Of a stretch of DNA of 64,000 nt, positions 46,099 through 64,000 are shown one piece after another. Each line of letters opens with the position of its first letter. Position 1 is the stretch's first letter. The translations under genes were made by a program, and so were the position numbers. Source of the DNA: Acidimicrobiales bacterium (GTDB taxonomy: Bacteria > Actinomycetota > Acidimicrobiia > Acidimicrobiales > JACDCH01). The notes beneath the pieces are model-generated. The model saw nothing but the letters and a program-made list of their open reading frames with translations, ran no database searches and had not been told where the DNA came from. The stretch is from contig JBPCON010000033.1 of the NCBI GenBank assembly GCA_051000215.1, positions 757-64,756 on the forward strand, written 5' to 3'.

Positions 46099-47433
46099 GT
46101 GTCATCACCGCGCTTTCGCCGCGCCCGCCTCGGCGCGCCCCTTCTCGTCGTCGGCTGCGCCCTCGCCGTCTTCCTCCGGATGAGCCCTGGCCCGACCTCC
46201 GCTGATGCCGTGGTCGAGCACGCGGTCGGCTACGAGGCGACCGTCGCGCAATGGACGAGCTGGTACGGCTCGTACGGGCTCGGAGACGCAGGGGTCGGGT
46301 GGTGCATCGACCACGGGTTGCGCGCCCCGGACCCCGACCTCGGCTACGCGCCGACACCGGTCGACGAGCAGAGCCCGGGCATCCGCGCCGCTGTGGCGTG
46401 GGCCGTGAGCGCGCACGGGATCAACCCCGACGCCGTTCGCGCTGCTGGGGTGATGCTGGCCATCCACGATCTCATGGGGGCCGAGTACCCCACCGGCCTG
46501 CTCGACGTCGACACCCTCGACCCGTCCCAACTCGCCGGCTTCGACGGCAACGAAGGCAACGTCATCGCGCAGGCACAGGCGATCAAGGCCGACGCCCTCG
46601 CGCACGGCGATCTCGTCGCGCCGCTCGCCCTTTCGATCGCGGCGCCCGCCGTGGAGCCGGGGGCGACGTCCGAGCTCGAGGTGCACCTGCTCGATGCGGG
46701 GGGCCGTCCGATCGCCGGCATCTCCGTGTCGCTCAGCTCATCCGGGGCCGTCCTCGCGAGCGGGGGCGCAGTGACGGGTCCGGGCGGCGACGTGCGGGTG
46801 GCGTTCACGGCAGTGGCGGGGACGAACGCGTTTCACGCGGCGGCCGACCCGCCCGACCCCGCGCTGCACGCGTACGCGTCGACGTCAGAGCCAGCCCAGC
46901 GTGTCGCGATACCCGCCGCTGCGCACGTCGCAGCCGACACGTCGTTCGTGGCCGCGTCGCCGACGACAGTGCCCCCCACGACGACCACGACCACGACAGT
47001 GGCGCCGAGCACCACAACGATGCCCACCACCACCACGTCCACCACGCTCGCGCCGAGCACCACGAGCACCACACTGGCGCCCACGACCACGACGCCGCCC
47101 ACCACGACGACCACCGTGCCCGTGACGACCAGCGTGCCGGCGCCCACCACGACCACGACGCTGCGCCCAGCTGCGACGACGAGCACGACGGCAGCGCCGG
47201 TGACGACCGAGACGACCGAGACGACGACGGCCCCATCGACGACCGCACCCGTCGTGGCGGCGACGTCACCAGCGGCGCCGAGCACACCCGTCGTGCCGGC
47301 GACCGCCTCGCGCCCCCTGCCCCGAACCGGCGTCGAAGCGCTCCCCCTGGCTTCGACCGGCTCGGGGCTCACCCTGCTCGGCGGTGCCCTGGTGAGCGCC
47401 GCCCGCCGGCGCGCCGCATGGCGACGCCGCTGA
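46099..47433 (+). CDS. sortase-anchored surface protein: putative thioester domain, Thr-rich stalk, LPRTG
   Basis: signal peptide, WCID motif, Y...AQR motif, PTTT repeats, LPRTG + TM + RRR tail. Confidence 0.75.
   Translation: MSSPRFRRARLGAPLLVVGCALAVFLRMSPGPTSADAVVEHAVGYEATVAQWTSWYGSYGLGDAGVGWCIDHGLRAPDPDLGYAPTPVDEQSPGIRAAVAWAVSAHGINPDAVRAAGVMLAIHDLMGAEYPTGLLDVDTLDPSQLAGFDGNEGNVIAQAQAIKADALAHGDLVAPLALSIAAPAVEPGATSELEVHLLDAGGRPIAGISVSLSSSGAVLASGGAVTGPGGDVRVAFTAVAGTNAFHAAADPPDPALHAYASTSEPAQRVAIPAAAHVAADTSFVAASPTTVPPTTTTTTTVAPSTTTMPTTTTSTTLAPSTTSTTLAPTTTTPPTTTTTVPVTTSVPAPTTTTTLRPAATTSTTAAPVTTETTETTTAPSTTAPVVAATSPAAPSTPVVPATASRPLPRTGVEALPLASTGSGLTLLGGALVSAARRRAAWRRR
46960..47270 (+). repeat. 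Thr/Pro-rich low-complexity coding repeat
   Basis: acc/acg runs encoding (A/V)P(S/T)TTTT units. Confidence 0.85.
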
Positions 47434-47446
47434 GCGACAAGGCTCG

Positions 47447-47491
47447 TTCTCGAGGCAATACGGGGCGCTACGCGCCACCTATTGCCTCGAG
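47447..47491. repeat. REP-like hairpin copy 2
   Basis: inverted copy of 836-880 with two mismatches in one arm, between convergent genes. Confidence 0.85.
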
Positions 47492-47508
47492 TTCGATGAA
47501 TGGGGGGT

Positions 47509-48852: not shown

Positions 48853-50085
48853 ATGTCCCAGCCGCCCTTGGCCGGCGTCCGCATCATCGAGTGCTCCATG
48901 CTCGGACCGGCGGCGATCACGACAAACCTCGCCGACCTCGGCGCCGAGGCCATCAAGGTCGAGCCACCCTCGGGCGACTACGTGCGCCAGATGACGTGGC
49001 CCATCGTCGAGGGCACCTCTCTCATGCATCTGCACGTCAACCGTGGCAAGCGGTCGGTCGTGCTCGACCTGCGCACCGAAGAAGGCGCAGCCACGTTCCT
49101 CGACCTCGTGCGCGACGCCGACGCGGTCGTCGAGGCGATGCGCCCTGGCGGACTCGAGCGCCGCGGCCTCGGCTACGACGAGCTGCGCGCCGTCAACCCC
49201 ACGATCGTGTTCATCACCATCTCCGGCTACGGCATGACCGGGCCGTACCGCGACATGCCGAGCCACGGCATCGCGTACGACACGTGGGCCGGCATCGTCG
49301 CTCCGGCCTACGACGACGACGGCTTCTGCTATCTCCCCGAGCACGTCTCGATCGGCATCAACGCCGGCCCGCTCTACGGCGCGCTCGGGATCCTCGCCGG
49401 GATCATCCAAGCTCGGGCAACCGGCGCCGGCTGCCAGCTCGAGCTGGCACAGTCCGATGCCGCTGCTGCGTTCGACTGGTACCGCAGTGAGTCGTACAAG
49501 GCCTACGAGCGGCCGCAGTCCGAGGTGGCGGGCAACGCAGCCGATGGCGGCGAGCGCCGGGCGCCCGGGACAGCAGGCATGCTCGAAGGCGTGCGCTACC
49601 AGCTGTATGAGACCAAGGACGCACGCCATGTGCTCTTCATGGCGTCCGAGCAGCTGTTCTGGAAGCGGTTCTGCGAAGCGATGGATCGCGCAGAGCTGTT
49701 CGAGCGGTGGCCAGGGTCGACCTACGGCGACCACGCGCGAGGCAACCACGAGCTGCACGCCATCCTGCGAGACGTCTTCCTGTCGAAGACGGCCGAAGAG
49801 TGGCTCGACTTCGCCAACACCGTCAACACCCCAATCGCTCCCGTCAACACACCGCAGAACATCGGCGACGACCCCCAGTTCAACGAGCGCCTGCCGTGGC
49901 TCCCCGCGGCTGTGCTCGGCGCCGAGCAGATCCCCGTGCCGATCAAGGTCGTCGCCGGCGCTGCTCTCTCCGCGCCGACGAAGGCACCGGAGATCGGCGA
50001 ACACACCGAGCAGGTGCTGCGCGACGTCCTCGGCTACGACGAGGCCAGCATCGCAGCCAAGCGCGCCGCTGGCGCGTTCGGGTAA
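48853..50085 (+). CDS. family III CoA transferase (CaiB/BaiF)
   Basis: LADLGAE.IKVE, NRGKRS, ISGYG.TGPY and APEIGEHT motifs. Confidence 0.9.
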   Translation: MSQPPLAGVRIIECSMLGPAAITTNLADLGAEAIKVEPPSGDYVRQMTWPIVEGTSLMHLHVNRGKRSVVLDLRTEEGAATFLDLVRDADAVVEAMRPGGLERRGLGYDELRAVNPTIVFITISGYGMTGPYRDMPSHGIAYDTWAGIVAPAYDDDGFCYLPEHVSIGINAGPLYGALGILAGIIQARATGAGCQLELAQSDAAAAFDWYRSESYKAYERPQSEVAGNAADGGERRAPGTAGMLEGVRYQLYETKDARHVLFMASEQLFWKRFCEAMDRAELFERWPGSTYGDHARGNHELHAILRDVFLSKTAEEWLDFANTVNTPIAPVNTPQNIGDDPQFNERLPWLPAAVLGAEQIPVPIKVVAGAALSAPTKAPEIGEHTEQVLRDVLGYDEASIAAKRAAGAFG

Positions 50086-52690: not shown

Positions 52691-54262
52691 TCATCCGGTG
52701 GCCTCGAGCGCGGCTTGCTTCGCCCACCCGTAGTCGGCCTTGCCGGCCGGCGACCGCTTGACCTCGTCGACCCACACGAACGCTCGCGGCAGCTTGTAGC
52801 CCGCGAGCTGCTCACGGCAGTGCGCATCGAGATCGTCGTCAGCGACGGAGGTTGCTGGGGCGCGGGAGACGACAGCGACGACCTTGTGGCCCCAGCGCTG
52901 GTCGGGGACGCCGACGACGAGAGAGTCGTACACGCCGGGATGCCCGGCGAGAACCTTCTCGACCTCCTCGGGATAGACCTTCTCGCCGCCCGTGTTGATG
53001 CACATCGAGCCCCGGCCGAACATCTGGATGGTGCCGTCGGCCAAGATCTCCGCGACGTCGCCGGTCAGCACCCAGCGCACGCCGTCCTTTTCGACAAAGG
53101 TCTCTGCCGTCTTCTCGGAGTCGCCGTAGTACCCGAGTGGGATGTGGCCACAGCGTGCGATGCGACCCTGCTTACCCGAGCCGGCTTCCACCTCGGTGAT
53201 CGTGCCGGGGTCGATGACCGTGGTCTCCTTGTCGTAGCTCGCGAACTTGCCGTCGCCGGTGTTGTACGCCTGCGCTCCGGTCTCGGACGCGCCGTAGCCG
53301 TCGTTGATGGCCACGTTGGGGAACACCTCGGCGATCTCGGCCCGGCCCGCAGCCGAGAGCGGCACCGCGCCGGAGCCGAAGGAGTAGATCGACGAGACGT
53401 CGTAGCTGTCCTTGTGCGCGAGGTACTCGTCGATGAGGGGCCGCGCCACAGCGTCGCCGATGATCGTCACGACGTTGGCCTTGTGCTCGGTGATCATTCT
53501 CCACACCTGCGCGTAGTCGGTTCGAGGGGCCGACCGGGTGAGCAGATTTCGGCCCCCGGCGAGGAACCACGCCCACGTCGTCCACTGCGCCGCGCCGTGC
53601 ATGAGCGGGGCGAGCGGGAAGAAGATGATCGGGTCGTCCATGATTCGTTGCGTGATGTCGCGCGGGTCGGTGAGCGGGTTCGCTCGCGTGAAGTCGCCGC
53701 CACCGAAGCACGAGTAGAAGGCGTCCTCCTGGCGCCAGACCACGCCCTTCGGCATACCGGTCGTGCCGCCTGTATAGACGACGTAGAGGTCATCGCCGGT
53801 GCGTTCGATCGCCTTCTGCTCCGGGGATGCTGCCGCGACGAGCGTCTCGTAGTCGCCCCCATCGCCGACCGAGACGCTGGTGTGCAATGTCGCGACATCG
53901 GGGGCAACGGCCGCGACGCGATCGGCGAATTCGACATCGTGCACGACGGCCTTCAGGTCGGCGTCGTTGAAGAGGTGCCGCAGCTCGGTGTCGACGTAGC
54001 GGTAGTTGACGTTGATCGGCACCGCTCGCAGCTTGAACGCAGCGAGCATCGTCTCGATGTACTCGGGGCAGTTGTAGAGGTAGCAGCCGACGTGGTCGTT
54101 GGGGCCGACACCGGCGTCGGCGAGCACGTCGGCCAGGCGGTTCGCTCTCTCCTCGAGCTGCGCGTACGTCGAGGAGCGATCGTCGACAACGAGCGCGACG
54201 CGGTCGGCCACGAGCGGGAGCACCGCCTCCCACATGTCCGCGAGGTTGAACGTGAGGCTCAT
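52691..54262 (-). CDS. acyl-CoA synthetase (FadD19-like)
   Basis: YTGGTTGMPKGV, GASETG, INTGGEKVYPEEVE and SPAGKADY motifs. Confidence 0.9.
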   Translation of the reverse strand: MSLTFNLADMWEAVLPLVADRVALVVDDRSSTYAQLEERANRLADVLADAGVGPNDHVGCYLYNCPEYIETMLAAFKLRAVPINVNYRYVDTELRHLFNDADLKAVVHDVEFADRVAAVAPDVATLHTSVSVGDGGDYETLVAAASPEQKAIERTGDDLYVVYTGGTTGMPKGVVWRQEDAFYSCFGGGDFTRANPLTDPRDITQRIMDDPIIFFPLAPLMHGAAQWTTWAWFLAGGRNLLTRSAPRTDYAQVWRMITEHKANVVTIIGDAVARPLIDEYLAHKDSYDVSSIYSFGSGAVPLSAAGRAEIAEVFPNVAINDGYGASETGAQAYNTGDGKFASYDKETTVIDPGTITEVEAGSGKQGRIARCGHIPLGYYGDSEKTAETFVEKDGVRWVLTGDVAEILADGTIQMFGRGSMCINTGGEKVYPEEVEKVLAGHPGVYDSLVVGVPDQRWGHKVVAVVSRAPATSVADDDLDAHCREQLAGYKLPRAFVWVDEVKRSPAGKADYGWAKQAALEATG

Positions 54263-54272
54263 GGTGCGCTTC

Positions 54273-55211
54273 CTACTTGATCGCGACAGGGTTCACTGGC
54301 GAGCCGAGCGCGCCGGTGAATGGTATGGGCGAGGCCTCGAGCAAGAAGCAGTACCGACCGTCGCCGGCACAGTCTGCCGCGAGCGCCTCGAGGTCGAAGT
54401 TCTGACCTTGCGTCAGGCCCATGTCGCGCAGCTGCAGCAGGTGCACAGGAAAGAGCGCGGAGGGGTCTTCCCCCGGGTATTGCTCCATGGCGACGGTGTC
54501 GGTCGCGACAGCGGCCACCTCGTGGCCCTTGAACCACGCAGGGCACTGGGTCGTGAGCCCGGCCTGAGGCCCCGTCGTGTACTCGGTGCGCTGCTTGGCG
54601 TGCATGAGCTGGGCGCGGCCGGTGCGCACGAGCGCGACATCGCCTGCCTCGAGCGCGACCGAAGCCAGCTCGAGCGCTGCGGAGAGGTCATCCGCCGTGA
54701 TCCCGTAACCGGGATCGAGCTGCTCGACGCCCTTGGCCCGAGCGACGTCGAGCAGCACGCCGCGCGAGGTGAGCGAGCGGACCTTGTGGATGCCGAGCTT
54801 CGTCGCACCTGACTCTGCGGTGATGCTCGAGGCCGGGTACCCGTTGTAGAGCTGCCCGCCGTAGCTGACGTGGGCGAGCGAGTCCCAGTGCGTCGAGGCT
54901 TGCAGGCCCATGGTGACGACGTCGTCGCTGCAGCAGAAGTTCGCGATATCGCCCGCGTACGGCGTGTTGACGGCGATCATCGTGCGGCGCGGGTTGATGC
55001 GCCCCGGGATCGAGCCGACCTGCGGGCTGCTGGCGTCGAACGGCATCGCCAGCGAGAGCCTGCGGCCGTCGACGATCGCCGCCGCACCGCGTCGCACCGC
55101 GGCGTCGTCGATCAGGTTGAGCGTGCCCAGCTGATCGTCATCACCCCACCGGCCCCACTGGCGGACCCGCTCGGCGATCTCGACGAACCAATCAGGCAGG
55201 GGCGCCGGCAC
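54273..55211 (-). CDS. cyclase family (kynurenine formamidase-like) metal hydrolase
   Basis: WGRWG..DQLGTLN, QASTHWDSLAH and GSPVNP motifs. Confidence 0.9.
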   Translation of the reverse strand: MPAPLPDWFVEIAERVRQWGRWGDDDQLGTLNLIDDAAVRRGAAAIVDGRRLSLAMPFDASSPQVGSIPGRINPRRTMIAVNTPYAGDIANFCCSDDVVTMGLQASTHWDSLAHVSYGGQLYNGYPASSITAESGATKLGIHKVRSLTSRGVLLDVARAKGVEQLDPGYGITADDLSAALELASVALEAGDVALVRTGRAQLMHAKQRTEYTTGPQAGLTTQCPAWFKGHEVAAVATDTVAMEQYPGEDPSALFPVHLLQLRDMGLTQGQNFDLEALAADCAGDGRYCFLLEASPIPFTGALGSPVNPVAIK

Positions 55212-55219
55212 GATTCTCC

Positions 55220-56290
55220 TCAGCTGAACGCGAGGACGCCGCGGTTGAGCTTGCCATCGTGCAGGTCGTCGAGGGCCTGTTGGATGTCGCCGGGCTGGTA
55301 GGTCTGGCTCACCATCTCATCGAGCAGGAAGCGCCCGTCGAGGTAGAAGCCGACGATGAGCGCGATGTCGTGGTGTGGACGTGTCGCGCCGTAGCGGCAG
55401 CCGAGGATCGCCTTGTCGTTGTACATCGTGCTCACGACGAAGCTGGCCTCTGTACCCATCTTGGGCACACCCAGCAGCACACACGAGCCGCCCCAGTCGA
55501 GCAGGTCGATCGACTGGCGGATGAGCGCTGGGTGCCCGACGCACTCGAACGCATAGTCGACGCCGTTCGCCAGACCGAGAGCCTTGACGGCCGCAACGGT
55601 GTCGTCCGTCGACGACGCGTCGATGAAGTCGGTGGCACCGAACTGCTTTGCCACGGCCTCCTTGGCCGGGTTGGCGTCGACGACGACGATTCGCCCAGCA
55701 GCCGACAACCGCGCAGCTTGGATGACGGCTTGGCCGATCCCGCCGGCCCCGATGACGAGCACGGTCTCTCCCGGCTGCACCTTCGCCCGGTTCAACACCG
55801 CACCAGCTCCGGTCACGACGGCGCAGCCGATGAGACATGCAGCGTCGAGCGGCACGCGCACGTCGATGACCACCGCCTGGGTCTCGTGGCACACCGTCAC
55901 CTCGGTGAACACACCAGCGTTCGCGAACTGGTACGCCTTCTCGCCACCGACGGTGAAGGGACGACTCAGCTTGCCTGCCGTATCGCGGCAGTGCGTTGGC
56001 TGGCCCCTGTCGCACGCGTCGCACTGCCCGCAGTTGCCGAGCGTGGTCAACACGACGTGGTCGCCGACCTTCACCTTGGTGACAGCCGAGCCCACCTCCT
56101 CGACGATCCCTGCACCTTCGTGGCCGAGCACGACTGGGGTCGGGAACGGGATCGTCCCGTCGATCACCGAGACGTCGCTGTGGCACAGCCCGGCCCGGTG
56201 GATGCGCACCCGCACCTCGCGGTCGCGGACTGCGCGCACCTCAACGTCGTCGCGCACCTCGAGCGCACCGGTCCAGACGATGCCCTTCAT
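55220..56290 (-). CDS. Zn-dependent alcohol dehydrogenase
   Basis: GLCHSD, GHEGAG, CGQCDAC and GAGGIG motifs. Confidence 0.93.
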   Translation of the reverse strand: MKGIVWTGALEVRDDVEVRAVRDREVRVRIHRAGLCHSDVSVIDGTIPFPTPVVLGHEGAGIVEEVGSAVTKVKVGDHVVLTTLGNCGQCDACDRGQPTHCRDTAGKLSRPFTVGGEKAYQFANAGVFTEVTVCHETQAVVIDVRVPLDAACLIGCAVVTGAGAVLNRAKVQPGETVLVIGAGGIGQAVIQAARLSAAGRIVVVDANPAKEAVAKQFGATDFIDASSTDDTVAAVKALGLANGVDYAFECVGHPALIRQSIDLLDWGGSCVLLGVPKMGTEASFVVSTMYNDKAILGCRYGATRPHHDIALIVGFYLDGRFLLDEMVSQTYQPGDIQQALDDLHDGKLNRGVLAFS

Positions 56291-56375
56291 GTTCCCCTCG
56301 CGGTCTCGGCCGATTTCGGCCTCGCCAGGCGTCGCCCTTCGGGCGCCGGCTCGATCATGTTCCCCTCGCGATCAT
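56287..56375 (-). repeat. MIRU-like interspersed unit: 72-bp copy (56287-56358) plus 21-bp deleted copy (56355-56375)
   Basis: encodes MIARGT* then MIEPAPEGRRLARPKSAETARGT*, each junction an ATGA overlap; 70/72 identical to 63303-63374. Confidence 0.85.
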
Positions 56376-58114
56376 CGGGCCGCACCGTTCGGTGCCAGCA
56401 CTCTGCCGGGGAGCCCAGCGTCGGGCTGCAGCTCGCCGTCGATCACGATGGGAACGCCGTTGACGATCGTGGCGTGCACGCCGGCCGGCTTGGAGGTCCA
56501 CCGGCCCGCCCCGTTCGGGAAGTCGTGGACGAACTCCTTGTGCGAGGGACTGACCGTGTCGGGGTCGAAGATCATGATGTCGGCTGCCCAGCCGGCGAGC
56601 AGCAGACCACGATCGGTGAGCCCGCACAGGGCCGCCGGGATGGCGGTGAGCTTGCGCACGCCCTCCTCGAGCGTGAAGCCGCCCCACTCGCGAACCCAGT
56701 AGCGCAGGAAGTAGCTCGAGGCTTCGGCGCCGTCGTCGCGGTCGAGGTGGGCGCCACCGTCTGACGTGCCGACGACCATGTGGGGATCCTCCTGGGCGAC
56801 CCTCGTGCCCTCGATCCACTCTGGCGTCTCCGTCTTCCAGAGGAGCTCGACCCTGAGGTCCTCGGACAGCGCAATGTCGAGCATCGCATCGGTCGGGTGC
56901 ACGCCGAGCTCAGCTGCGATGTCGACGAGGGAGCGACCGACGTACTTGTCGTTCTCGGGCTTCGTCACCGCGTTGATGTGCAGCACCGACCAGTGCGGTG
57001 GCGGGAGCGTCGGGCCGGCAGATGGGTCGCGGTTCGGGTTGTCGACCGAGTCGCGGATTGCATCGCGAAAGGCAGCGTCGCGCAGCAAAGCGATGCGCTC
57101 CTCGGTGCTCGAAGCCTCGGTGAACATGCGGTTGAACTGCCGGGCGCCTTCGTAGAGCTTCGTGCCCGTCGCGAGGTCGAAGGTGCGGTTGAACGGCTTC
57201 GACATCGCCATCGAGTAGACGGCTGCGCCTTGCTCGGTGGCCTCGTCGACGAAGCGCTTGGCGTTGTCCCACCCGGCTGTCGGCGCGTCCACCTTCGAAC
57301 GGGCACCGAGGCCTTGGATGATCACCGGCATGCGCGCTGCGAGCGAGAGGTCGATCAGAAGCGCCTCGTCGTCGGGCGTGATGCCGCCGACGGCCGAGCC
57401 AGGGAGGTACGCAATCGAGCCGCCCCTTCCTTTTCCCGCGGCCTCGACGAGCGAGCGCAGCTCGCCGAGCGACGAGAGCCGGCTGGGCACCGGACGGTCG
57501 GCCGAGTCGAAGTGCGTCGGCGAATGGGTCGAGGAGAAGCCAGCAGCGCCGGCGTCCATGGCCTCGCGCACGATCGTGACCATGCGCTCGACCTCGTCGG
57601 CCGTGGCCTCGCGGGCTTGGCAGTCGTCACCCATCACGTAGCGGCGGATCGCGCAGTGCCCGACGTAGAACGCCGCGTTGATGCCGAGCTTGCCGCGCAT
57701 GTGCTCGAGGTACTCGGGGAACGTCTCGAAACCATCGAAGGGGATGCCGCCGAGCGCGCTCGCGTCCATGCCCTCGACCCGCGCGAACAGCTGGATGAGC
57801 CAAGGGCTGTCGCCGGGCCGCAGCGGCGCGACCGAGAAGCCGCAGTTGCCCGCGACCACCGTGGTGACGCCGTGGTAGCAGCTCGATGTGCCGTAGGGCT
57901 CGAAGGTGAGTTGCGGGTCGTAGTGGGTGTGTGGATCGACGATGCCCGGCGCGACGATGCGTCCCCCAGCGTCGATCTCCTTGACGCCCTTGCCATCCAC
58001 GAAGCCGATCTCGGCGATGCGACCGTCTCGTACCGCGACATCGGCGCGCCGCCGAGGGAGCCCCGTGCCGTCGATGACGAAGCCGTTCCTGATCACGAGG
58101 TCGAAGGTCGTCAT
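56372..58114 (-). CDS. N-acyl-D-amino-acid deacylase family amidohydrolase
   Basis: DPHTHYD, GNCGFS, SDGGAH and ADIMIFD motifs. Confidence 0.9.
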   Translation of the reverse strand: MTTFDLVIRNGFVIDGTGLPRRRADVAVRDGRIAEIGFVDGKGVKEIDAGGRIVAPGIVDPHTHYDPQLTFEPYGTSSCYHGVTTVVAGNCGFSVAPLRPGDSPWLIQLFARVEGMDASALGGIPFDGFETFPEYLEHMRGKLGINAAFYVGHCAIRRYVMGDDCQAREATADEVERMVTIVREAMDAGAAGFSSTHSPTHFDSADRPVPSRLSSLGELRSLVEAAGKGRGGSIAYLPGSAVGGITPDDEALLIDLSLAARMPVIIQGLGARSKVDAPTAGWDNAKRFVDEATEQGAAVYSMAMSKPFNRTFDLATGTKLYEGARQFNRMFTEASSTEERIALLRDAAFRDAIRDSVDNPNRDPSAGPTLPPPHWSVLHINAVTKPENDKYVGRSLVDIAAELGVHPTDAMLDIALSEDLRVELLWKTETPEWIEGTRVAQEDPHMVVGTSDGGAHLDRDDGAEASSYFLRYWVREWGGFTLEEGVRKLTAIPAALCGLTDRGLLLAGWAADIMIFDPDTVSPSHKEFVHDFPNGAGRWTSKPAGVHATIVNGVPIVIDGELQPDAGLPGRVLAPNGAAR

Positions 58115-58127
58115 GGCACGCTCAAAC

Positions 58128-58141
58128 TAGAACGCGTTCTA
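58128..58141. promoter_or_regulatory. KstR-like operator TAGAAC-GC-GTTCTA, copy 1
   Basis: fits TnnAACnnGTTnnA; lies in a divergent intergenic region. Confidence 0.75.
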
Positions 58142-58193
58142 TTCTTGCTGCAAGGCACGGGACAAGTGTCGTCGGTCGTGCCAGCATCGGCAC

Positions 58194-59411
58194 ATGCCTT
58201 ACACATCAGGGCGGGTCGTCCACGACGCCGACGCCCACATCATGGAGACCCCGACCTGGCTGCGCGACCACGCCGACCCGTCGGTGCGCGATCGCATCGC
58301 ACCCCTCCGCTATCCCGGCGGCAACGAGCTCAAGCAGACGGGCGACGTCGCTGCGCAGCAGGCCGACCTCGTCGCAGCGTTCGACCGCCTCGCAGCGAAG
58401 CACCGCTCCGACGACTACGTCGCCGTCGAGCAGGCCGAGATCATGATGCGCAAGAACTTCGCTGCTACAGGGGCGTTTCTCCCCGAGGATCGCGGCCGGG
58501 CCCTCGACCTGCTCGGCTTCTCGAGCCAGCTCGTGTTCAACACGTTCCACAACCGGCGCCTGCGCGACTGGGAGCACAGCGGCGACCTCGACCTCGCCTA
58601 CGGAGCAGCTCGCGCCCACAACCGCGGGATGGTCGAGTTCTGCTCGATCGACGAGCGGCTCCTCGCCACGTGCTACGTGCCCCTCGCCGACCCTGAGCGC
58701 GCTGTCGCGTTCGCTGGTGAAGCGATCGAGCTCGGCGCGGCGGCGCTGCTCATCGCGTCGAGCTGCCCCGCGGGCCGAAGCCCAAGCCACATCGCCTTCG
58801 ACCCGGTGTGGGCGCAGGCCGAGGCTGCCGGCATCCCGATCGTCTTCCACGTCGGCGGCACCGGCGACCTCATCGAGCGCGACTACTTCAACAACGGCCT
58901 GCCGATCCCGCCCGACTTCCACGGCGGCGAGGAGAACTTCCGCTCGGTCGACTACATGGGCATCCCGCACCCGCCCATGCAGGCGTTGGCCACCCTCATC
59001 TTCGACGGCGTCCTCGAGCGGTTCCCGACGTTGCGCTTCGCAGCGATCGAGCAGGGGGCCATCTGGGTGCCGTCGTGGATGCGCCAGATGGAGTCGGCCT
59101 TCGATGCGTTCCACCGCCACGAGGAGCGCATCGAACAGCTCTCGATGCGACCGAGCGACTACGTGCGCCGCCAGGTGCGCGCCACGCCCTACCCGACAGA
59201 AGACGTCGGATGGATCATCGAGCAGAGCGGGCCCGAAGTGTGCATGTTCTCCTCCGACTACCCCCACGTCGAAGGAGGCCGCAAGCCCGTCGAGCGCTTC
59301 GAGGCAAGCCTCGACGCGTCGGGCATCGGCGAGGAAGCTCGCCAGCGCTTCTGGAGCGACAACATGCTCGACCTCATGGGATCAGCTGCCGAACACCTCG
59401 CCGCCGCGTAA
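58194..59411 (+). CDS. amidohydrolase_2 family protein
   Basis: DADAH, VFH, GVLERFP and SSDYPHVE motifs. Confidence 0.9.
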   Translation: MPYTSGRVVHDADAHIMETPTWLRDHADPSVRDRIAPLRYPGGNELKQTGDVAAQQADLVAAFDRLAAKHRSDDYVAVEQAEIMMRKNFAATGAFLPEDRGRALDLLGFSSQLVFNTFHNRRLRDWEHSGDLDLAYGAARAHNRGMVEFCSIDERLLATCYVPLADPERAVAFAGEAIELGAAALLIASSCPAGRSPSHIAFDPVWAQAEAAGIPIVFHVGGTGDLIERDYFNNGLPIPPDFHGGEENFRSVDYMGIPHPPMQALATLIFDGVLERFPTLRFAAIEQGAIWVPSWMRQMESAFDAFHRHEERIEQLSMRPSDYVRRQVRATPYPTEDVGWIIEQSGPEVCMFSSDYPHVEGGRKPVERFEASLDASGIGEEARQRFWSDNMLDLMGSAAEHLAAA

Positions 59412-59475
59412 GGGTGCTGGCGGGCGTCGCTGCGACCGCTCGCTCTCAGTGTCACACCTCGGGTGCATGATGCAG

Positions 59476-59489
59476 GGAACATATGTTCG
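59476..59489. promoter_or_regulatory. LexA (SOS) box overlapping the HNH gene start
   Basis: GGAAC-ATAT-GTTCG, one mismatch from CGAAC-N4-GTTCG. Confidence 0.65.
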
Positions 59490-60745
59490 TCTCGCTCACC
59501 TTCCTGCTCGACCAGTTGGTCTCCTACAACCTGGCTGCTGAGCCGTCGACGTGGACGAGCGAGCAGGCGCTGGGCGTCGTGGCCGTGGCGTCGAGGATCA
59601 AGAACGCGGCTGGCACGTTGGAGGCCATCGCGGCTGCTCGCGTCGCGGAGACCGGCGCGTGGCGCAACAGCGGCGCGCCGACCCCAGCCGATTGGTTCGC
59701 CGGGCAAACAGGGTCGAGCACCAATCAGGCGAAAGAGCGCCTCGAGACAGCGACCGCGCTCAACGGGGGTTTGGACGCGACAGCCGAACGGGCCAAGGCG
59801 GGCAAGCTCTCAGCAGAGCAGGCCGCGGCCATCACCGACGCCGCGACCAAGAACCCCGACGCGGAAGACGAGCTGCTCGCGACCGCCGATCGGGAGTCTC
59901 TCAACGAGCTGCGCGACAAGTGCAAGACCAAGAAACGCGAAGCCGACACCGACCCCGACGCCACCCACCGCCGGTTGCGCAGCCAGCGCAGCCTGCGCCG
60001 CTACTGCGACAAGGAAGGCGCAGCACACCTGCACTGGAACTCCACCGCGGATGACGCATCGGAGATCGACACCACACTCGATGCGATCATCGACGAACTG
60101 TTCGAAACCGCACGCAAGGACAACAGGAACGAACCCCGCGACGCCTACGCCGCCGACGCGCTCACCGAAATGGCCCGCCGCGCTCGCGGCGGACCGGCGG
60201 GCCCCACCAAGTCGGCCAAGGCCGCAGCGAAATACCTCGGGCTCATCCGCGCCGACCTGTCGGCGCTCGTGCGCGGCAACGTTCAGCCCGGTGAGCTGTG
60301 TGAGATCACCGGCATCGGGCCCATCCCGGTGTCACGCGCCCGCGAACTACTCGGCGAATCCATCCTCAAGCTCGTCCTCACAAGCGGCCGCGACGCGAAC
60401 GTCACCCACCTCGGCCGCGGCGCCAACGCCACGCAACGGATCGCGCTGCTGTGGCGCTCACCCATCTGCTCTGTTGCCGGCTGCAGCCGCCGCGCCCGCC
60501 TCGAGAACGACCACATCACCACCTTCGCCGAGGTCCGCGAGACAAGCCTCGACAACCTCGAACCCAAATGCGAGCACCACCACGACCTCAAGACCTACCA
60601 AGGCTGGGAGAAACTCCCCGACACCGGGCGACAACCCATGATCCCCCCCGAAGACCCCCGCCACCCCCGCTACCGGCCACCCCCAGAGGTCGAGCCTGAG
60701 TCGCCCGGGCACAACGATCAACTGGTAGGCGCCCTCCTCAACTGA
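59483..60745 (+). CDS. DUF222 (13E12-repeat-like) HNH endonuclease
   Basis: ADAL..MAR, GIGPIP and C..GC..DH..NL..CEHHH..K motifs. Confidence 0.85.
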   Translation: MFVSLTFLLDQLVSYNLAAEPSTWTSEQALGVVAVASRIKNAAGTLEAIAAARVAETGAWRNSGAPTPADWFAGQTGSSTNQAKERLETATALNGGLDATAERAKAGKLSAEQAAAITDAATKNPDAEDELLATADRESLNELRDKCKTKKREADTDPDATHRRLRSQRSLRRYCDKEGAAHLHWNSTADDASEIDTTLDAIIDELFETARKDNRNEPRDAYAADALTEMARRARGGPAGPTKSAKAAAKYLGLIRADLSALVRGNVQPGELCEITGIGPIPVSRARELLGESILKLVLTSGRDANVTHLGRGANATQRIALLWRSPICSVAGCSRRARLENDHITTFAEVRETSLDNLEPKCEHHHDLKTYQGWEKLPDTGRQPMIPPEDPRHPRYRPPPEVEPESPGHNDQLVGALLN

Positions 60746-61244
60746 GCGCTGCGACGAGGACCTCGGGGTCTGCGACCGTAACGGTCAACGCCGAGTGGGC
60801 ACGCAGGTCGACCGGGCCGGCCTTGACCGGCTCGGCGAAGCTGATGCACACGCCGCGCGCCGTCGTCGTTGCGAACGTGAGACCGCTATCTCGCAACGAC
60901 AGGCGCGGCGGCCCCGCCACCTTAAGGAGCGAGTAGGGGCCGGTCACCTCTGCGCTCACCACGTTGGCGAGCGGGGTCCGCAGACGCCAAATGCCGAATC
61001 GCACCGCGAGCATGCCGTCGGCGATCTCGACTCGAGCCCGGCGCGGGAGGACCCCGGCCAGGATGCTGAACGGAAGGACACGCGCGTCTGAGGCGAACGC
61101 GAACGACAGCGCGCTCGGCTGCTGCGTCACGACGAGCTCGTCCTGCGAAGTGGCGGCTGGCGCCTCGAAGCTCATTGACGCGTCCTGCGCGGCGTCAACG
61201 CCGACCGGCTCGGTGTCCGGCCGATCGACCGTCAGATCGACCAC
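60738..61244 (-). CDS. conserved actinobacterial hypothetical protein; possibly frameshifted 5' part from ATG 61344
   Basis: RFG.W.L.TPL.NV, GPPRLSL.D.GLTFAT and LTVTVADP motifs. Confidence 0.7.
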   Translation of the reverse strand: MVDLTVDRPDTEPVGVDAAQDASMSFEAPAATSQDELVVTQQPSALSFAFASDARVLPFSILAGVLPRRARVEIADGMLAVRFGIWRLRTPLANVVSAEVTGPYSLLKVAGPPRLSLRDSGLTFATTTARGVCISFAEPVKAGPVDLRAHSALTVTVADPEVLVAALS

Positions 61245-61469
61245 GTCGCCGTCGATCTGACAGGTGCTCGCGCACCTCCATCTCGAACTCCCGCTCCAAC
61301 AGGTCGTCGCGCTTGGGTCCGACCCTGTTCCCGCCTGCCTCCATGCGTGGACCTCCGTCTCAGGGCGTTCGTCAGACCTTCCCCGAAGCGGACGTCGTCA
61401 TCGTTTACCACCCGGCGCGCACGCAGCTCCCTGGCAATCCCCGAGCAGGCTGATCAGCGGCACCCTCGA

Positions 61470-61832
61470 TCACCGCGGCTCGAGCAGCTCGATGCGGTTG
61501 CCGAAGGGGTCAGCGACGTAGACGCGGTCGTAGCCGTCGAGGGGCTCGTCGTCGACCAGATCGACGCCGGCGCCGCGCAGACGCTCGGTCAACGCAGACA
61601 GGTCGCGCACGAGAAGCGCCGGGTGGGCCTTGCGGGCGGGCCGGAAGGCACCTTCGACTCCGAGGTGGATCTTGAGCGCTCCGTCTTCGAACCAGCACCC
61701 GCCGCGCGCTGCCAGGTTTGGCGGCTTGGGCACGTTCGCGATGCCGAGCAGGCCCTCGTAGAACGCGATAGCGGCCGGCTCCTCGCCCGCCGGCATCGTG
61801 AGCTGCACGTGGTCGATCCGCTCGACTCTCAT
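61470..61832 (-). CDS. VOC/glyoxalase family protein
   Basis: IDHVQL, FYEGLLG, KAHPAL and DPFGNRIEL motifs. Confidence 0.9.
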   Translation of the reverse strand: MRVERIDHVQLTMPAGEEPAAIAFYEGLLGIANVPKPPNLAARGGCWFEDGALKIHLGVEGAFRPARKAHPALLVRDLSALTERLRGAGVDLVDDEPLDGYDRVYVADPFGNRIELLEPR

Positions 61833-61845
61833 GTCGACAAGCTTT

Positions 61846-63306
61846 CTAGCCGGGCCAGATGATGCTCTGTAGCTCGCTGTATGCGTGCAGGCCGTAGGTG
61901 CCGCCATCGCGGCCGACGCCCGACTGCTTGAAGCCGCCGAAGGGGGCCTCGTGGTTTCGCTGCGCCGTGTTGATGCCGACGTTGCCACTGCGCAGTTGGC
62001 GCGCGACGCGCATGCCGCGAGCGGAATCGCCGGTGAACACGTAGTCGTACAAGCCGAACTCGGTGCTGTTGGCCAAGGCGATGGCCTCGTCCTCGTCGTC
62101 GAAGGGCAACACGACGACGACGGGTCCGAAGAACTCCTCTTGCACGGCGCGCATGCCTTGCTTGCAAGCGGCGATGAGCGTCGGAGCAACGTAGAAGCCG
62201 GCTGCCATGTCGGGCCGCGCTCCGCCGGCCACGAGCTCGCCGCCTTCCTCGATCCCCGACTGCACGAGCGCCTCGATCCTGTCGCGCTGCACCGCGGAGA
62301 TGACGGGGCCGAGCACGGTGTCGCTTTCGAGAGGGTCGCCGACCTTGAACCGAACGGCCGCAGCGCCGAGCCGCGCAACCACTTGGTCATAGACCCCACG
62401 CTGGACGATGACCCGTGTTGGCGCTGTGCAGATCTGGCCCGAGTGGAACGCCCAGGCCGAGGTGATGGTGCCGATGGCGACCTTGAGGTTGGCATCGTCG
62501 AACACGACGCCGGCACCCTTGCCGCCGAGCTCCATCAGTTGGCGCTTCATGCCCCGCCCCGCGACCTCACCGATGCGTTGACCAACGACCGTCGAGCCCG
62601 TGAAGGAGATCATGTCGACCGAGGGCGACGCGACGATCGCCTCACCGACGCCGGCGCCGCTGCCGACGACGATGTTCACGACACCGGGAGGGAAGCCGGC
62701 CTGGTCGAGCACCTCGCCGAAGCGGAGGACAGCGAGGGGGTCTTGCGGCGCGGGTTTGACCACAACGGTGTTGCCCATTGCCAGCGCCGGGCCGATCTTG
62801 CCCGCCATGTTCACGATCGGGAAGTTGTATGGCGTGATGCAGGCCACCACGCCGACCGGCTGGCGCACTGCCACCGCGCCGATGAGCCCGCCGGGCGCAA
62901 GGGCAGTGGTCGGCATCTCCGACGGCGCGAGCGCCGTCTCGCGGGGTTCGACCGCGCCCTTGGCGTAGCGGCGCATCCGCTCGACGCACGTCGGCACCTG
63001 CATGGTCGACGCGACGCGCATCGTTGCGCCTGTCTCCGCCTGCACGAGCGGGATCAGCTCGTCGATCCTCTCGCGCAGGATGTCGCCCGCCTTGTTGAGC
63101 AGCTCCGCACGGTGTTCGGGCTTCGTTCGGCTCCACGCACCGAACGCCTCAGCTGCCGCATCGGTGGCCTGGCGAGCCTGCTCGACCGATGCCTCCGGAG
63201 CCTGACCGACGACGGTCTCGGTTGCGGGGTTCACGATGTCGTAGGTGCCTGAAGCGCCGTCGACGCGCTCACCGCCGATGAGGAGCTGGTACTCGCTGGC
63301 CATCAT
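61846..63306 (-). CDS. aldehyde dehydrogenase
   Basis: ITPYNFP, FTGS, ELGGK, GQIC, EEFFGP and PFGGFKQSG motifs. Confidence 0.95.
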   Translation of the reverse strand: MMASEYQLLIGGERVDGASGTYDIVNPATETVVGQAPEASVEQARQATDAAAEAFGAWSRTKPEHRAELLNKAGDILRERIDELIPLVQAETGATMRVASTMQVPTCVERMRRYAKGAVEPRETALAPSEMPTTALAPGGLIGAVAVRQPVGVVACITPYNFPIVNMAGKIGPALAMGNTVVVKPAPQDPLAVLRFGEVLDQAGFPPGVVNIVVGSGAGVGEAIVASPSVDMISFTGSTVVGQRIGEVAGRGMKRQLMELGGKGAGVVFDDANLKVAIGTITSAWAFHSGQICTAPTRVIVQRGVYDQVVARLGAAAVRFKVGDPLESDTVLGPVISAVQRDRIEALVQSGIEEGGELVAGGARPDMAAGFYVAPTLIAACKQGMRAVQEEFFGPVVVVLPFDDEDEAIALANSTEFGLYDYVFTGDSARGMRVARQLRSGNVGINTAQRNHEAPFGGFKQSGVGRDGGTYGLHAYSELQSIIWPG

Positions 63307-63374
63307 GTTCCCCTCGCGGTCTTGGCCGATTTCGGCCTCGCCAGGCGTCGCCCTTCTGGCGCCGGCTCGATCAT
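63303..63374 (-). repeat. MIRU-like interspersed unit, full copy 2
   Basis: encodes MIEPAPEGRRLARPKSAKTARGT*; its TGA overlaps the ALDH ATG. Confidence 0.85.
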
Positions 63375-63418
63375 GGCACCAGACTAGAACGCGTTCTAGT
63401 CTGAGAACATGATCGAGC
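63365..63418. promoter_or_regulatory. symmetric bidirectional promoter with KstR-like operator copy 2 (core 63385-63398)
   Basis: 24-bp perfect palindrome cagactagaacgcgttctagtctg; TAGTCT-6 nt-ATG on both strands. Confidence 0.8.
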
Positions 63419-64000
63419 TTGCCGAGATCCCCCGCATCATCTCCGTCGACGACCACGTGGTCGAGCCACCGACGCTGTGGACCGACCGGCTGCCGAAGAG
63501 GTACCTCGATCGCGCGCCGCGGGTCGAGCGCGACACAGCGCGCTTTCACTTCGAGGGTGGCGTCTTCTCCTTCGAGAAAGGCGTCGAAGGCGGGGAGCCG
63601 TGCGACTGGTGGCTCTACGACGACCTCGTCTACCCGTTCCCGAAGCTCTCGGCTGCCGTGGGGTTCGACGATCTCGATGTCACACCGACCACCTACGACG
63701 ACATCCGATCCGGCTGCTGGATTCAGAAAGATCGACTCGCGGACATGGACGCCAACCACATGGACGCGTCGATCTGCTTCCCGAACACGCTCCCCCGGTT
63801 CTGTGGTCAGACGTTCTACGAGCGAGACGACAAGGAGCTCGCGCTCCTCTGCGTCGAGGCGTACAACGACTGGATGCTCGACGAGTGGTGCGCCGGCGAC
63901 GGCAAAGGCCGCTTGATCCCGCTCACGATGGTGCCGCTGTGGGACGCGGGGCTCGCAGCAGCCGAGGTGCGGCGCAACGCGGCCCGGGGTAGCTACGCCG
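63409..64000 (+). CDS. amidohydrolase_2 family protein, 3' end outside window (not in ORF track)
   Basis: MIELAEIPRIISVDDHVVEPP..., ICFPN.LPRFCGQ and AYNDW. Confidence 0.9.
   Translation, partial: MIELAEIPRIISVDDHVVEPPTLWTDRLPKRYLDRAPRVERDTARFHFEGGVFSFEKGVEGGEPCDWWLYDDLVYPFPKLSAAVGFDDLDVTPTTYDDIRSGCWIQKDRLADMDANHMDASICFPNTLPRFCGQTFYERDDKELALLCVEAYNDWMLDEWCAGDGKGRLIPLTMVPLWDAGLAAAEVRRNAARGSYA

Follow-up and report, generated by a model that had tools for sequence, protein, structure and literature searches.

A probable MIRU-type repeat family at operon gene junctions in an Acidimicrobiales genome

The window analysed here, a stretch of 64,000 nucleotides (nt) of DNA from an Acidimicrobiales bacterium, contains a zinc-type alcohol dehydrogenase (ADH) gene and an aldehyde dehydrogenase (ALDH) gene, each preceded by a 72-nt unit on the minus strand (Table 1). 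The two units are identical at 70 of 72 positions, and each is an exact ATG-to-TGA open reading frame (ORF) of 23 amino acids, MIEPAPEGRRLARPKSA[E/K]TARGT*. The TGA of unit A (56289-56287) shares bases with the ATG of the ADH gene, that of unit B (63305-63303) shares bases with the first ATG of the ALDH gene, and both units carry a ribosome-binding-site-like motif, GAGGGG, 5 nt ahead of the ATG. Next to unit A lies a short copy (ATG ATC GCG AGG GGA ACA TGA) with an internal deletion that keeps both ends and the reading frame; it retains the first 7 and last 16 letters of the unit, with 51 nt (17 codons) lost. The TGA of this copy shares bases with the ATG at the head of unit A. The initial annotation of this DNA had described an unbroken chain from the amidohydrolase through ORFs of 6 and 23 amino acids to the ADH; this chain is real, because the ATG of the short copy overlaps the TGA of the amidohydrolase gene, and ATGA is found at three of three joints.

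A repeat search of the window returned the pair of units A and B as 82 nt at 94% identity; no other non-tandem direct repeat in the window comes close to this length. Upstream of unit B no gene runs in its direction, and the gene that begins beyond it is divergent; unit B therefore lies within a divergent promoter region. The 14-mer palindrome upstream of unit B recurs in identical form at 58128-58141, upstream of the amidohydrolase gene (two matches compared with 0.22 expected), and the operator-like palindrome upstream of the ALDH gene is kept in relatives. A scan for promoters and terminators placed no site at the repeat units. One match of the covariance model for the family (model R1) at 49696-49754 was discarded, as it falls within a CoA-transferase-like coding region.

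Table 1 Features of the window, with positions, and sites of repeat copies in the genome
Feature	Position	Strand	Basis or remark
Unit A, full 72 nt	56287..56358	-	covariance-model match, 91.8 bits
21-nt internally deleted unit (MIARGT*)	56355..56375	-	sequence, reading frame
Unit B, full 72 nt, on ALDH start codon	63303..63374	-	covariance-model match, 89.4 bits
Hairpin 1 (variable stem), unit A	56330..56348	-	one G.A mismatch interrupts this copy
Conserved 31-nt core, unit A	56296..56326	-	13 copies genome-wide with 0-1 mismatch
Hairpin 2, GGCCG AAAT CGGCC, inside unit A core	56308-56321	-	
GAGG ribosome-binding-like motif, unit A; its beginning falls within the core	56294-56299	-	
Zinc-type alcohol dehydrogenase gene, downstream of unit A	55220..56290	-	ADH_N, ADH_zinc_N
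Amidohydrolase gene, upstream of short unit, same operon as ADH	56372..58114	-	Amidohydro_3, E 3e-27
Aldehyde dehydrogenase gene, downstream of unit B	61846..63306	-	Pfam Aldedh, E 3e-156
Divergent gene, incomplete at window end	63409..63999	+	Amidohydro_2, weak match
Perfect 14-nt operator-like palindrome, 10 nt upstream of unit B	63385..63398	.	sequence
Array, ilvB / ilvN junction			
Array, rimP / nusA junction			
Array, purD / purE-like junction			
Array, ABC1 kinase / CoA-binding enzyme junction			
Array, tetR / P450 junction			
Array, amidohydrolase / ADH junction			
Array, SDR / small lipoprotein junction			
Array, lipoprotein / convergent gene junction			
Unit on ALDH start codon			
Truncated copy, divergent spacer			

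Further copies, which the initial annotation had anticipated, are present across the 2.8-Mb genome. Counting as clear any copy with E <= 1e-9 (BLAST and model R1), we found 15 units at 10 loci on 8 contigs; with 13 clear copies besides the two in the window, the window pair is not a chance likeness. Four further sites (C58, C25, C28 and C32) hold diverged or decayed copies. C40, where the beginning of a PGI-like gene (MIEPAPE) may be a captured unit end or its source, holds a 20-nt 5' piece. Units are 68-72 nt in length and frequently stand two in tandem, in arrays of 1 to about 2.3 units (periods of 65-69 nt) that are head-to-tail in every case. Nine loci have an array or unit directly beside a gene, and in all nine it runs in the direction of that gene, with none antisense; seven loci lie between two co-oriented genes.

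The proposed placement and design hold for part of the family. At 5 of 10 loci the array end shares bases directly with the next start codon, and at 2 more it reaches one via further short overlaps, but C8a, C8b and C63 touch no start codon. Seven of the 15 units start with ATG, whereas eight have CTG in its place. In the ATGA units at C12 (both loci), C61 and C27, and in part at C57, the two ends of the ORF share bases with the adjacent stop and start codons; the eight CTGA units lack this arrangement. At the rimP and tetR loci the reading frame of the upstream protein runs on through the array, which forms its C-terminal part in place of separate mini-ORFs (protein tails at C11 and C31). Periods mostly fit the way in which the units are read: 68, 17 or 20 nt (2 mod 3) in ATGA chains and 69 or 66 nt (0 mod 3) in arrays that are read through (69 nt at C31, 66 nt for the first C8a period), but one 65-nt period at C8 (2 mod 3, CTGA-joined) fits neither pattern. 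The tetR insert, of 138 nt (46 codons), keeps the frame and has an 11-nt direct duplication on its flanks.

Each unit consists of a fixed 5' end, a variable hairpin that pairs, a 31-nt core and a tail of GAGG plus (A/C)TGA. The 5' end is a TGA that can serve as the stop codon of the upstream gene, overlapped by an ATG in the seven ATG units, and apart from the end-TGA words there is no stop in any sense frame. At the 3' end, GAGG is followed after 6-7 nt by (A/C)TGA; when a unit inserts, the stop-start overlap is thereby restored and the next gene gains a Shine-Dalgarno-like site. Mean pairwise identity is a mosaic, high in the first 10 nt of the 5' end (92%) and in the core (96%) and low in the hairpin region (52%) and the tail (49%). 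Terminal inverted repeats, a trait of MITEs, are absent: ATGATCGAGCC at the 5' end is not complementary to GAGGGGAACATGA at the 3' end.

The empty sites that the initial annotation had suggested looking for were found at five junctions, the unit being absent at every orthologous site compared in related genera. Most of these sites are a bare ATGA, GTGA or TGATG stop-start overlap or a bare start codon. At ilvB/ilvN, 10 of 10 relatives are without the unit family, 7 of them with a bare GTGA or TGATG. The amidohydrolase-ADH gene pair is kept in 14 relatives, and the family is absent from all 14 junctions; 11 have no insert (ATGA, GTGA or TGATG), one of these 11 having a 10-nt spacer. The family is likewise absent at rimP/nusA in 11 of 11 relatives (10 insert-free), and the tetR/P450 junction is insert-free in 7 of 7. 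At the ALDH start, the three relatives that could be aligned (G006, G003 and G001) all have the operator, then 10-11 nt, then the ATG.

In some relatives, three of these junctions (ilvB/ilvN, amidohydrolase/ADH and rimP/nusA) are occupied by different repeat families of similar design. These families, of 93 nt (period 89) and roughly 100 nt, occur in G011, G013, G005, G002, G012 and G016, and share with the present family the (A/G)TGA-bounded units, the tandem arrays and the identical three junctions. Their 5' ends are also similar to that of the present family (TGAGCGAGC versus TGATCGAGC), whereas their interiors are unrelated and their copy numbers higher: each of the four richest genomes has at least 24-52 matches, and G006 only 7. 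All 16 units of the 93-nt family captured by pattern are mini-ORFs bounded by (A/G)TGA. The 93-nt family gave no significant match in the source genome (best E 0.05). The relatives' repeat matches metagenome-assembled genomes titled Acidimicrobiia, Acidimicrobiales or Ilumatobacteraceae. At one junction the roughly 100-nt family stands in either orientation, and each orientation is an overlap-bounded ORF.

Searches for a second carrier of the present family were negative in all the collections covered. Model R1 did not find it in 40 relatives or in the 17 other genomes of the GTDB family (18 species genomes including the source); its sole match in the relatives, in G002, sits within a membrane-protein coding region and was set aside as chance. 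The exact 24-nt core had no match in a public collection of genome contigs and 14 matches among metagenome contigs, all within a single conserved coding gene that has no relation to the repeat (records of the source genome may be excluded from both results); neither collection therefore yields a second carrier. Searches of plasmids with blastn gave no match for the unit or for the relatives' 93-nt unit. Among the sequencing runs, one contig of an independent run, X2, has a second, extra 20-nt short unit at the amidohydrolase/ADH junction with the ATGA chain kept, as seen in a single metagenome contig at a depth of 7.1 of 21.9; contigs of X3, X4 and X6 break at the units and are uninformative on copy number. 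Several odd joints in the run contigs proved to be cross-mapping of other copies of the family.

We consider it likely that the units belong to a MIRU-type repeat that is lineage-specific and non-autonomous and occurs both interspersed and in tandem. Judging from the orthologous sites, the family appears to have dispersed in the lineage of the source genome after its split from the related genera examined, landing on (A/G/C)TG(A) words at stop-start overlaps, on a start codon and, in one case, on an out-of-frame TGA within a coding region. Arrays then appear to have grown and shrunk locally by tandem duplication and internal deletion. The genes beside the units probably stay translated, as has been proposed for mycobacterial MIRUs. 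Ribosomes ending an upstream gene would translate the mini-ORF and then pass to the downstream start, and surviving copies may thus be nearly neutral for operon expression; at the ALDH locus, ribosomes would begin on the seemingly leaderless 5' ATG of unit B. Where the frame is not closed, the array would simply be read as a protein tail, as in RimP and TetR. The fixed 5' end, the 31-nt core and the pairing-preserving hairpin may be the parts needed for copying or for a role at the RNA level. The translation of the units, its coupling to the next gene and the harmlessness of the copies are all predictions from sequence. The term 'translational relay cassette', under which the window units were first described, suits the ATG units with their overlaps and not the CTG units, the arrays read as protein tails or the loci without a start codon; given 7 of 15 ATG starts, two protein-tail arrays and three start-less loci, it therefore fits part of the family.

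What moved the units bears on the leading alternative, a dispersed minisatellite without a dedicated transposition step, whether encoded by the element or by the host, in which ectopic gene conversion or template switching at TGA/ATGA microhomologies, followed by slippage, would spread copies and selection would remove those that break translation. No transposase-like gene was found: Y1_Tnp (PF01797) was absent from all 18 genomes of the family (52-98% complete), with control genomes giving matches, and the RVT_1 and TnpB zinc-ribbon domains were not found in the source genome, in an assembly type from which mobile genes are often missing. As neither a mobilising gene nor another genome with the family was found, movement is read only from presence versus absence at orthologous sites across genera. 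The minisatellite explanation would also account for the lack of terminal inverted repeats, the direct duplication around the tetR array, the tandem arrays, the internal deletion between CG microhomologies and the strain variant with its extra short unit. However, 10 unlinked loci have been reached with exact 5' and 3' ends each time, the 5' end and core are 92-96% identical while the rest diverges, which points to a recognised sequence, and several unrelated families occupy similar sites in relatives. We therefore regard it as unlikely.

A second alternative is a structured cis-regulatory RNA (a leader that binds a protein or ligand, or a site of processing or stabilisation) recruited before co-regulated genes, with the mini-ORF incidental. 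The core, hairpin 2 included, hardly varies between copies, and hairpin 1 has seven different stems at the 10 loci, all of which pair. In an alignment fitted to a hand-given structure (model R1, realigned), six of the seven pairs of helix 1 are changed on both sides, in 19 cells. In 500 shuffles the observed values for cell count, pair-type count, percentage paired and covariation score were never reached, whereas 9 of the 500 reached six pairs changed on both sides. RNAalifold on a plain MAFFT alignment, in which hairpin 1 is mis-registered, gave 0 of 10 pairs with compensatory change. Perfect stems may also come from template-switch repair of quasi-palindromes, with no selection needed. Also in favour of a regulatory RNA, the two window copies are in operons with a common operator palindrome. 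Against it, the folding energy of unit A with its flanks is no lower than that of shuffled sequence (-39.8 versus -41.3 +/- 3.5 kcal/mol, z = +0.43), and at E <= 10 a scan of 54000-64000 of the window with Rfam 15 placed no family on the units. The neighbouring genes, of housekeeping and catabolic function (ilvBN, rimP-nusA, purD-purE, kinase, P450), are unrelated, copies stand in tandem, within coding regions and behind a gene without a downstream partner, and the orthologous sites of relatives lack the unit or carry unrelated repeats. A regulatory RNA thus seems improbable as the origin of the family.

Still less probable are palindromes of the REP/BIME type or derived from IS200/IS605, moved by a Y1 (RAYT/TnpA) transposase that inserts beside a short target word. 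The two G+C-rich hairpins per unit, the insertion beside a fixed short word (TGA) and a target duplication that is absent or very short would suit such elements, but the Y1 domain was found in none of the 18 family genomes (52-98% complete) and the arrays are all head-to-tail and non-alternating. That the mini-ORF is a functional small protein, and its copies a small gene family, is hardly credible: exact ORFs of 23-24 codons do follow a Shine-Dalgarno-like site in the preceding unit, but the peptide varies freely in the hairpin 1 part while nucleotide pairing stays, more than half of the units have no ATG, and the rimP and tetR loci read this DNA in other frames.

The reading as a MIRU-type repeat rests on likeness to a system known from mycobacteria. 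As described in papers that cite Supply et al. 1997, MIRU units are 40-100 bp in length (PMC2734929), lie between genes and are presumed to form part of polycistronic transcripts (PMC3635867), and are apparently mobile, with insertion at a start codon coupling the internal ORF to the gene at -4 spacing (PMC12548453). On these descriptions, the present family is similarly short, dispersed, often tandem and intergenic within operons, and the variation of MIRU copy number between strains may have a counterpart in the extra short unit of the X2 contig. It differs in its host, which belongs to another class than the Mycobacteriaceae, in the CTG that replaces ATG in about half of the units, and in the two arrays that are in-frame protein parts and the one unit that replaces a seemingly leaderless start; it also has a pairing-preserving variable hairpin and a near-invariant 31-nt core. 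REP/BIME elements, which are moved by RAYT transposases (PMC2817692), resemble the present units as short G+C-rich hairpin repeats that lie between operon genes and are co-transcribed. The present units differ from these in that no Y1 transposase was found in 18 genomes, in having head-to-tail arrays only and in their defined start, stop and Shine-Dalgarno end words. Rickettsia palindromic elements are short repeats that survive in coding regions by frame preservation. The small mobile sequences found within enterobacterial genes (PMC2759123) resemble the tetR and rimP arrays in keeping the frame inside coding regions. Unlike both of these, most present copies lie between genes on stop-start overlaps, and they have no terminal inverted repeats. 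In the synthetic bicistronic design (PMC12548453), ribosomes reach a downstream gene by way of a short leader ORF; this design has in common with the present units a short ORF with an internal Shine-Dalgarno site and an end that overlaps the target start, whereas the present units are natural, repeated and dispersed.

In the literature cited here, start-codon insertion with mini-ORF coupling as the means by which MIRUs survive is based on mycobacteria alone, and our search of the open literature, whose 'MIRU-like' part covered papers up to 2012, returned no description of such elements outside mycobacteria. The present results extend the MIRU-type design beyond that group, to at least three unrelated sequence families in uncultured actinobacteria of the Acidimicrobiia type. 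Clean empty sites, the reuse of junctions and in-frame insertions make the design rule testable by comparison of many genomes, and the units, at 17 to 93 nt, offer natural compact cassettes with which termination-reinitiation could be assayed in reporters. They also carry a warning for annotation: RimP and a TetR regulator have repeat-encoded tails, and gene callers will misplace such starts.

More tentatively, Acidimicrobiia may harbour a whole class of fast-evolving elements without a transposase that home to (A/G)TGA and ATG words in operons, their 5' end and core being recognised by a possibly host-encoded activity. The idea draws on the reuse of junctions by different families, on relay ORFs in either orientation and on the one seemingly leaderless start that has been taken over; we give it a minority chance. 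Were it true, gene junctions would be the niche of these elements and translational coupling the rule that they have to obey, and operons of these bacteria would contain a natural, evolvable system for tuning the ratios at which their genes are expressed.

Two 72-nt units in the window, A and B, differ at 2 of 72 positions in the minus-strand reading, and GAGGGG stands 5 nt before the ATG of both dehydrogenase genes that they abut. As described in the initial annotation, each is an exact mini-ORF joined to its gene by a TGA/ATG overlap (70/72 identical). The same reading confirms the reported chain of amidohydrolase, 6-amino-acid ORF, 23-amino-acid ORF and alcohol dehydrogenase (ADH), with ATGA at all three joints; the shorter ORF lacks 51 nt (17 codons) of the unit, because only its first 7 and last 16 letters remain.

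Further copies had been predicted elsewhere in the genome (G000; 2.8 Mb, 63 contigs, 97% complete; the window is from contig C12). Clear copies (E ≤ 1e-9) number 15, spread over 10 loci and 8 contigs; BLAST, a fuzzy core search and a covariance model trained on 14 units all give this result. Units stand in head-to-tail pairs at five loci, and one of the two loci on contig C8 (C8a) carries two units followed by the opening 15 nt of another. A diverged array of 1.3 units lies on C58, and decayed copies on C28 (before a UvrD-like helicase gene), C32 (before an SDR gene) and C25 still place the 3′ GAGG–ATG part on a gene start. On C40, a PGI-like gene (MIEPAPETERV...) begins with the first 20 nt of the unit and overlaps the stop of a phosphomannomutase gene by ATGA; this piece represents a captured end of a unit or, alternatively, the sequence from which the 5′ end of the unit came.

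Genomic context was read from Pfam matches of flanking ORFs and frame by frame. At all loci where units abut a gene (9/9), they share its orientation (chance of about 0.002 if loci are independent coin flips). The repeat-encoded RimP tail and TetR insert are both missing from the orthologues of relatives.

Features of the window and loci of the repeat family in G000 (ORF, open reading frame)
Feature	Position	Strand	Reading
Unit A, 72 nt	56358..56287	-	exact ORF, 23 codons + TGA
Unit B, 72 nt	63374..63303	-	exact ORF, 23 codons + TGA; in a divergent promoter region, on the ALDH start codon
Short copy, 21 nt	56375..56355	-	first 7 + last 16 letters of the unit kept
Zinc-type alcohol dehydrogenase gene	55220-56290		ATG overlapped by TGA of unit A
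Aldehyde dehydrogenase (ALDH) gene	61846-63306		ATG overlapped by TGA of unit B
Amidohydrolase gene	56372-58114		TGA overlapped by ATG of the 21-nt copy
Amidohydrolase / short unit + unit / ADH	in window		ATGA chain
ilvB / 2 units / ilvN			chain ilvB > 24 aa > 23 aa > ilvN; ATGA at all joints
purD / partial 5′ ends + 1 unit / purE-like			one 31-aa ORF, ATGA at purD stop to GTGA at next start
ABC1 kinase / 2 units / CoA-binding enzyme			kinase stop is the unit's TGA; first unit CTG; second unit a 19-aa ORF, then a 10-aa ORF, then GTGA onto the enzyme gene
rimP / 2 units / nusA	C11:31426-31568		first TGA out of RimP frame; frame runs through 136 nt (45-aa tail) and stops at the final ATGA of nusA
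tetR / 2 units / P450	C31:20415-20558		period 69 nt; both units in frame (46 extra residues), 15 nt (5 codons) before the TetR stop, which retains its own ATGA overlap with the P450 start
SDR / 2.2 units / small lipoprotein gene			units without ATG; array ends 30 nt before next start
Lipoprotein gene / 1.2 units / convergent gene
Truncated copy	C63		divergent spacer
PGI-like gene start (first 20 nt of unit)	C40:63406-63425 (L016)

The proposal that units are ATGA-bounded mini-ORFs of frame-preserving length holds in part. Seven of the 15 units begin with ATGA, with chains at ilvB/ilvN and amidohydrolase/ADH; the other eight begin with CTGA, and the RimP and TetR arrays are read as parts of proteins. 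Periods are 2 mod 3 where ATGA chains occur (68 and 17) and 0 mod 3 at C31 (69) and in the first C8a period (66), but the other C8 periods are 65 nt, 2 mod 3, despite CTGA joints. Unit ends rebuild TGA, GAGG and ATG, and lengths mostly suit the reading mode.

The units have four modules: a 5′ end, (A/C)TGA(T/C/A)CGAGC; hairpin 1, the stem of which varies from locus to locus; a 31-nt core that includes hairpin 2 (GGCCG AAAT CGGCC); and a tail of GAGG, 6–7 nt and (A/C)TGA. Mean pairwise identity is 92% over the first 10 nt, 96% in the core, 49% in the tail and 52% in the hairpin-1 region, the last an underestimate because the MAFFT alignment mis-registers some loops. Read by eye, seven distinct hairpin-1 stems across the 10 loci all pair, with one G.A mismatch in each of the C12 and C11 copies. 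In an alignment fitted to a hand-given structure, and biased toward it, 6 of 7 hairpin-1 pairs are changed on both sides, in 19 cells. Among 500 shuffles, 9 matched the 6 pairs, and not one came up to the real alignment in cell count, pair-type count, percent paired or covariation score. The other two helices show no covariation in this alignment. Three points speak against a special RNA fold: that bias, the zero compensatory pairs found by RNAalifold on the plain alignment, and the folding of unit A plus flanks, which is not better than that of shuffled sequence (z = +0.43). No Rfam family matches the units, there are no promoter-like or terminator-like sites at them, and their ends are not inverted repeats of each other.

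Orthologous junctions came from the rest of the GTDB family to which G000 belongs (17 further species, in 7 further genera), with IlvN proteins around 76–85% identical to that of G000. The G000 repeat family is absent from every junction compared. At ilvB/ilvN, 7 of 10 relatives have no insert (bare GTGA or TGATG) and 3 a different one; at amidohydrolase/ADH, 11 of 14 have none (ATGA, GTGA or TGATG, one with a 10-nt spacer) and 3 a different one; and at rimP/nusA, 10 of 11 have none (ATGA or TGATG) and 1 a different one. No insert is present at tetR/P450 (7 relatives) or at the ALDH start (3 relatives aligned to the start codon). The empty ADH and ALDH sites sought in the initial annotation therefore exist, and because the sites lack the G000 family in all relatives compared, the units were gained in the G000 lineage. 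As read from sequence, the targets were (A/G)TGA overlaps and a start codon; in one case the target was a CTGA within a gene, out of frame. TetR of the relatives ends a few residues past the G000 insertion point, and an 11-nt direct duplication lies on both sides of the G000 array.

At the ALDH start, the three relatives have an operator palindrome, then 10–11 nt without a Shine–Dalgarno-like run, then ATG; at precisely this ATG, G000 carries 71 nt more. TAGTCT, a TANNNT-like hexamer, ends 6 nt before this ATG. Such hexamers just before an ATG are linked to leaderless genes of actinobacteria, and the ALDH mRNA probably starts at or beside the ATG; the ATG of unit B would then have taken the place of this putative leaderless start codon. 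The perfect 14-nt palindrome TAGAACGCGTTCTA is at 58128-58141 and 63385-63398, just upstream of the amidohydrolase–ADH operon and of the ALDH gene (2 matches versus 0.22 expected), and is kept upstream of the ALDH orthologues of the relatives. It resembles operators of KstR-like TetR regulators, which control lipid and steroid catabolism, and its overlap with a TANNNT-like hexamer suggests leaderless or near-leaderless starts.

The filled junctions of relatives hold other repeats. A 93-nt unit (period 89) is at ilvB/ilvN in G011 and G013 and at amidohydrolase/ADH in G013. DNA searches gave at least 52 matches in G011, 46 in G013, 24 in G005 and 48 in G002, lower bounds from the top 40 candidates scored per genome. 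Arrays in G011, G013 and G005 (L085–L112) reach seven or more units (for example, L095:1412-1600). A sequence pattern captured 16 distinct full units at loci of these genomes, and all 16 are (A/G)TGA-bounded 93-nt ORFs with ATG or GTG; the pattern set the TGA ends and left start codon and frame free. A unit of around 100 nt is at amidohydrolase/ADH in two genomes of one genus, G012 (L257) and G016 (L260), the latter with two copies oriented oppositely to that of G012; by our reading, either orientation is an ORF from the upstream stop to the ATGA on the ADH start. For the 26-nt core of the 93-nt family, genome_contigs yields at least 121 matching stretches; among the matches listed, nearly all are MAGs titled Acidimicrobiia, Acidimicrobiales, Ilumatobacteraceae or Actinomycetota, which gives the group its taxonomic place. 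G000 itself lacks a significant match to this family (best E 0.05). In G002 (L088, L093, L098, L103, L108, L113) and G006 (L089, L094, L099, L104, L109), the core of the 93-nt family has other termini, which resemble short inverted repeats (GGTGACCG ... CGGTCAC); this form may be a MITE-like relative.

The covariance model found no true copy of the G000 family in 40 relatives (17 of the same family, 23 from other families of the order); the single match was rejected as it lies inside a coding region. The exact 24-nt core of the G000 unit has 0 matches in genome_contigs, and those in metagenome_contigs (L058–L071) are chance matches, all within a single conserved coding gene from unrelated soil bacteria, so that an exact-word scan by itself would give a false distribution. 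Y1_Tnp was found in 0 of 18 family genomes, and RVT_1 and the TnpB domain are absent from G000 (controls positive; assemblies incomplete).

The stretch is partly present in 20 DNA runs from 13 studies, with 0 RNA runs among them. Contigs of four runs were compared with the window. Behind 56353, one contig of run X2 (depth 7.1 of 21.9) contains an additional 20 letters, a second short-unit copy that again keeps the ATGA chain; contigs of other runs stop at the unit, and some contig joints come from cross-mapping of further copies of the subfamily. The X2 contig is direct, though weak, evidence that short-unit copy number changes between strains.

Other repeats in the window include a 59-nt palindromic sequence at 828-886 and 47442-47500 (46.6 kb apart, arms 88% complementary). 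A tandem array at 27913-28131 (27-nt period, six overlapping 84-nt copies, 61–100% identity) is probably a coding 9-residue repeat, and an irregular direct repeat rich in ACC/ACG at 46949-47180 is probably a low-complexity Thr/Pro-type coding stretch.

MIRUs are described as units of 40–100 bp that M. tuberculosis H37Rv carries at 41 loci (PMC2734929). Most lie between genes, and they are thought to be transcribed as parts of polycistronic operons (PMC3635867); they are also described as apparently mobile, inserting at start codons with an internal ORF coupled at −4 spacing (2025 review citing Supply et al. 1997; PMC12548453). The G000 family has the same design, a likeness drawn from descriptions of MIRUs. 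Searches of the openly accessible literature found no description of such elements in Acidimicrobiia, nor, in papers up to 2012, of 'MIRU-like' elements elsewhere.

The repeat is dispersed and co-oriented, was gained at stop–start words and has undergone local duplication and deletion of units. We infer that ribosomes translate the mini-ORFs or protein tails and then reinitiate at the rebuilt overlap; insertions that survive would therefore be close to neutral or would adjust expression ratios. Along with the hairpin, the conserved 5′ end and core probably serve in copying or at the RNA level. To the MIRU-type picture this adds several families that reuse the same junctions, protein tails encoded in frame, and a copy at a start codon that is probably leaderless.
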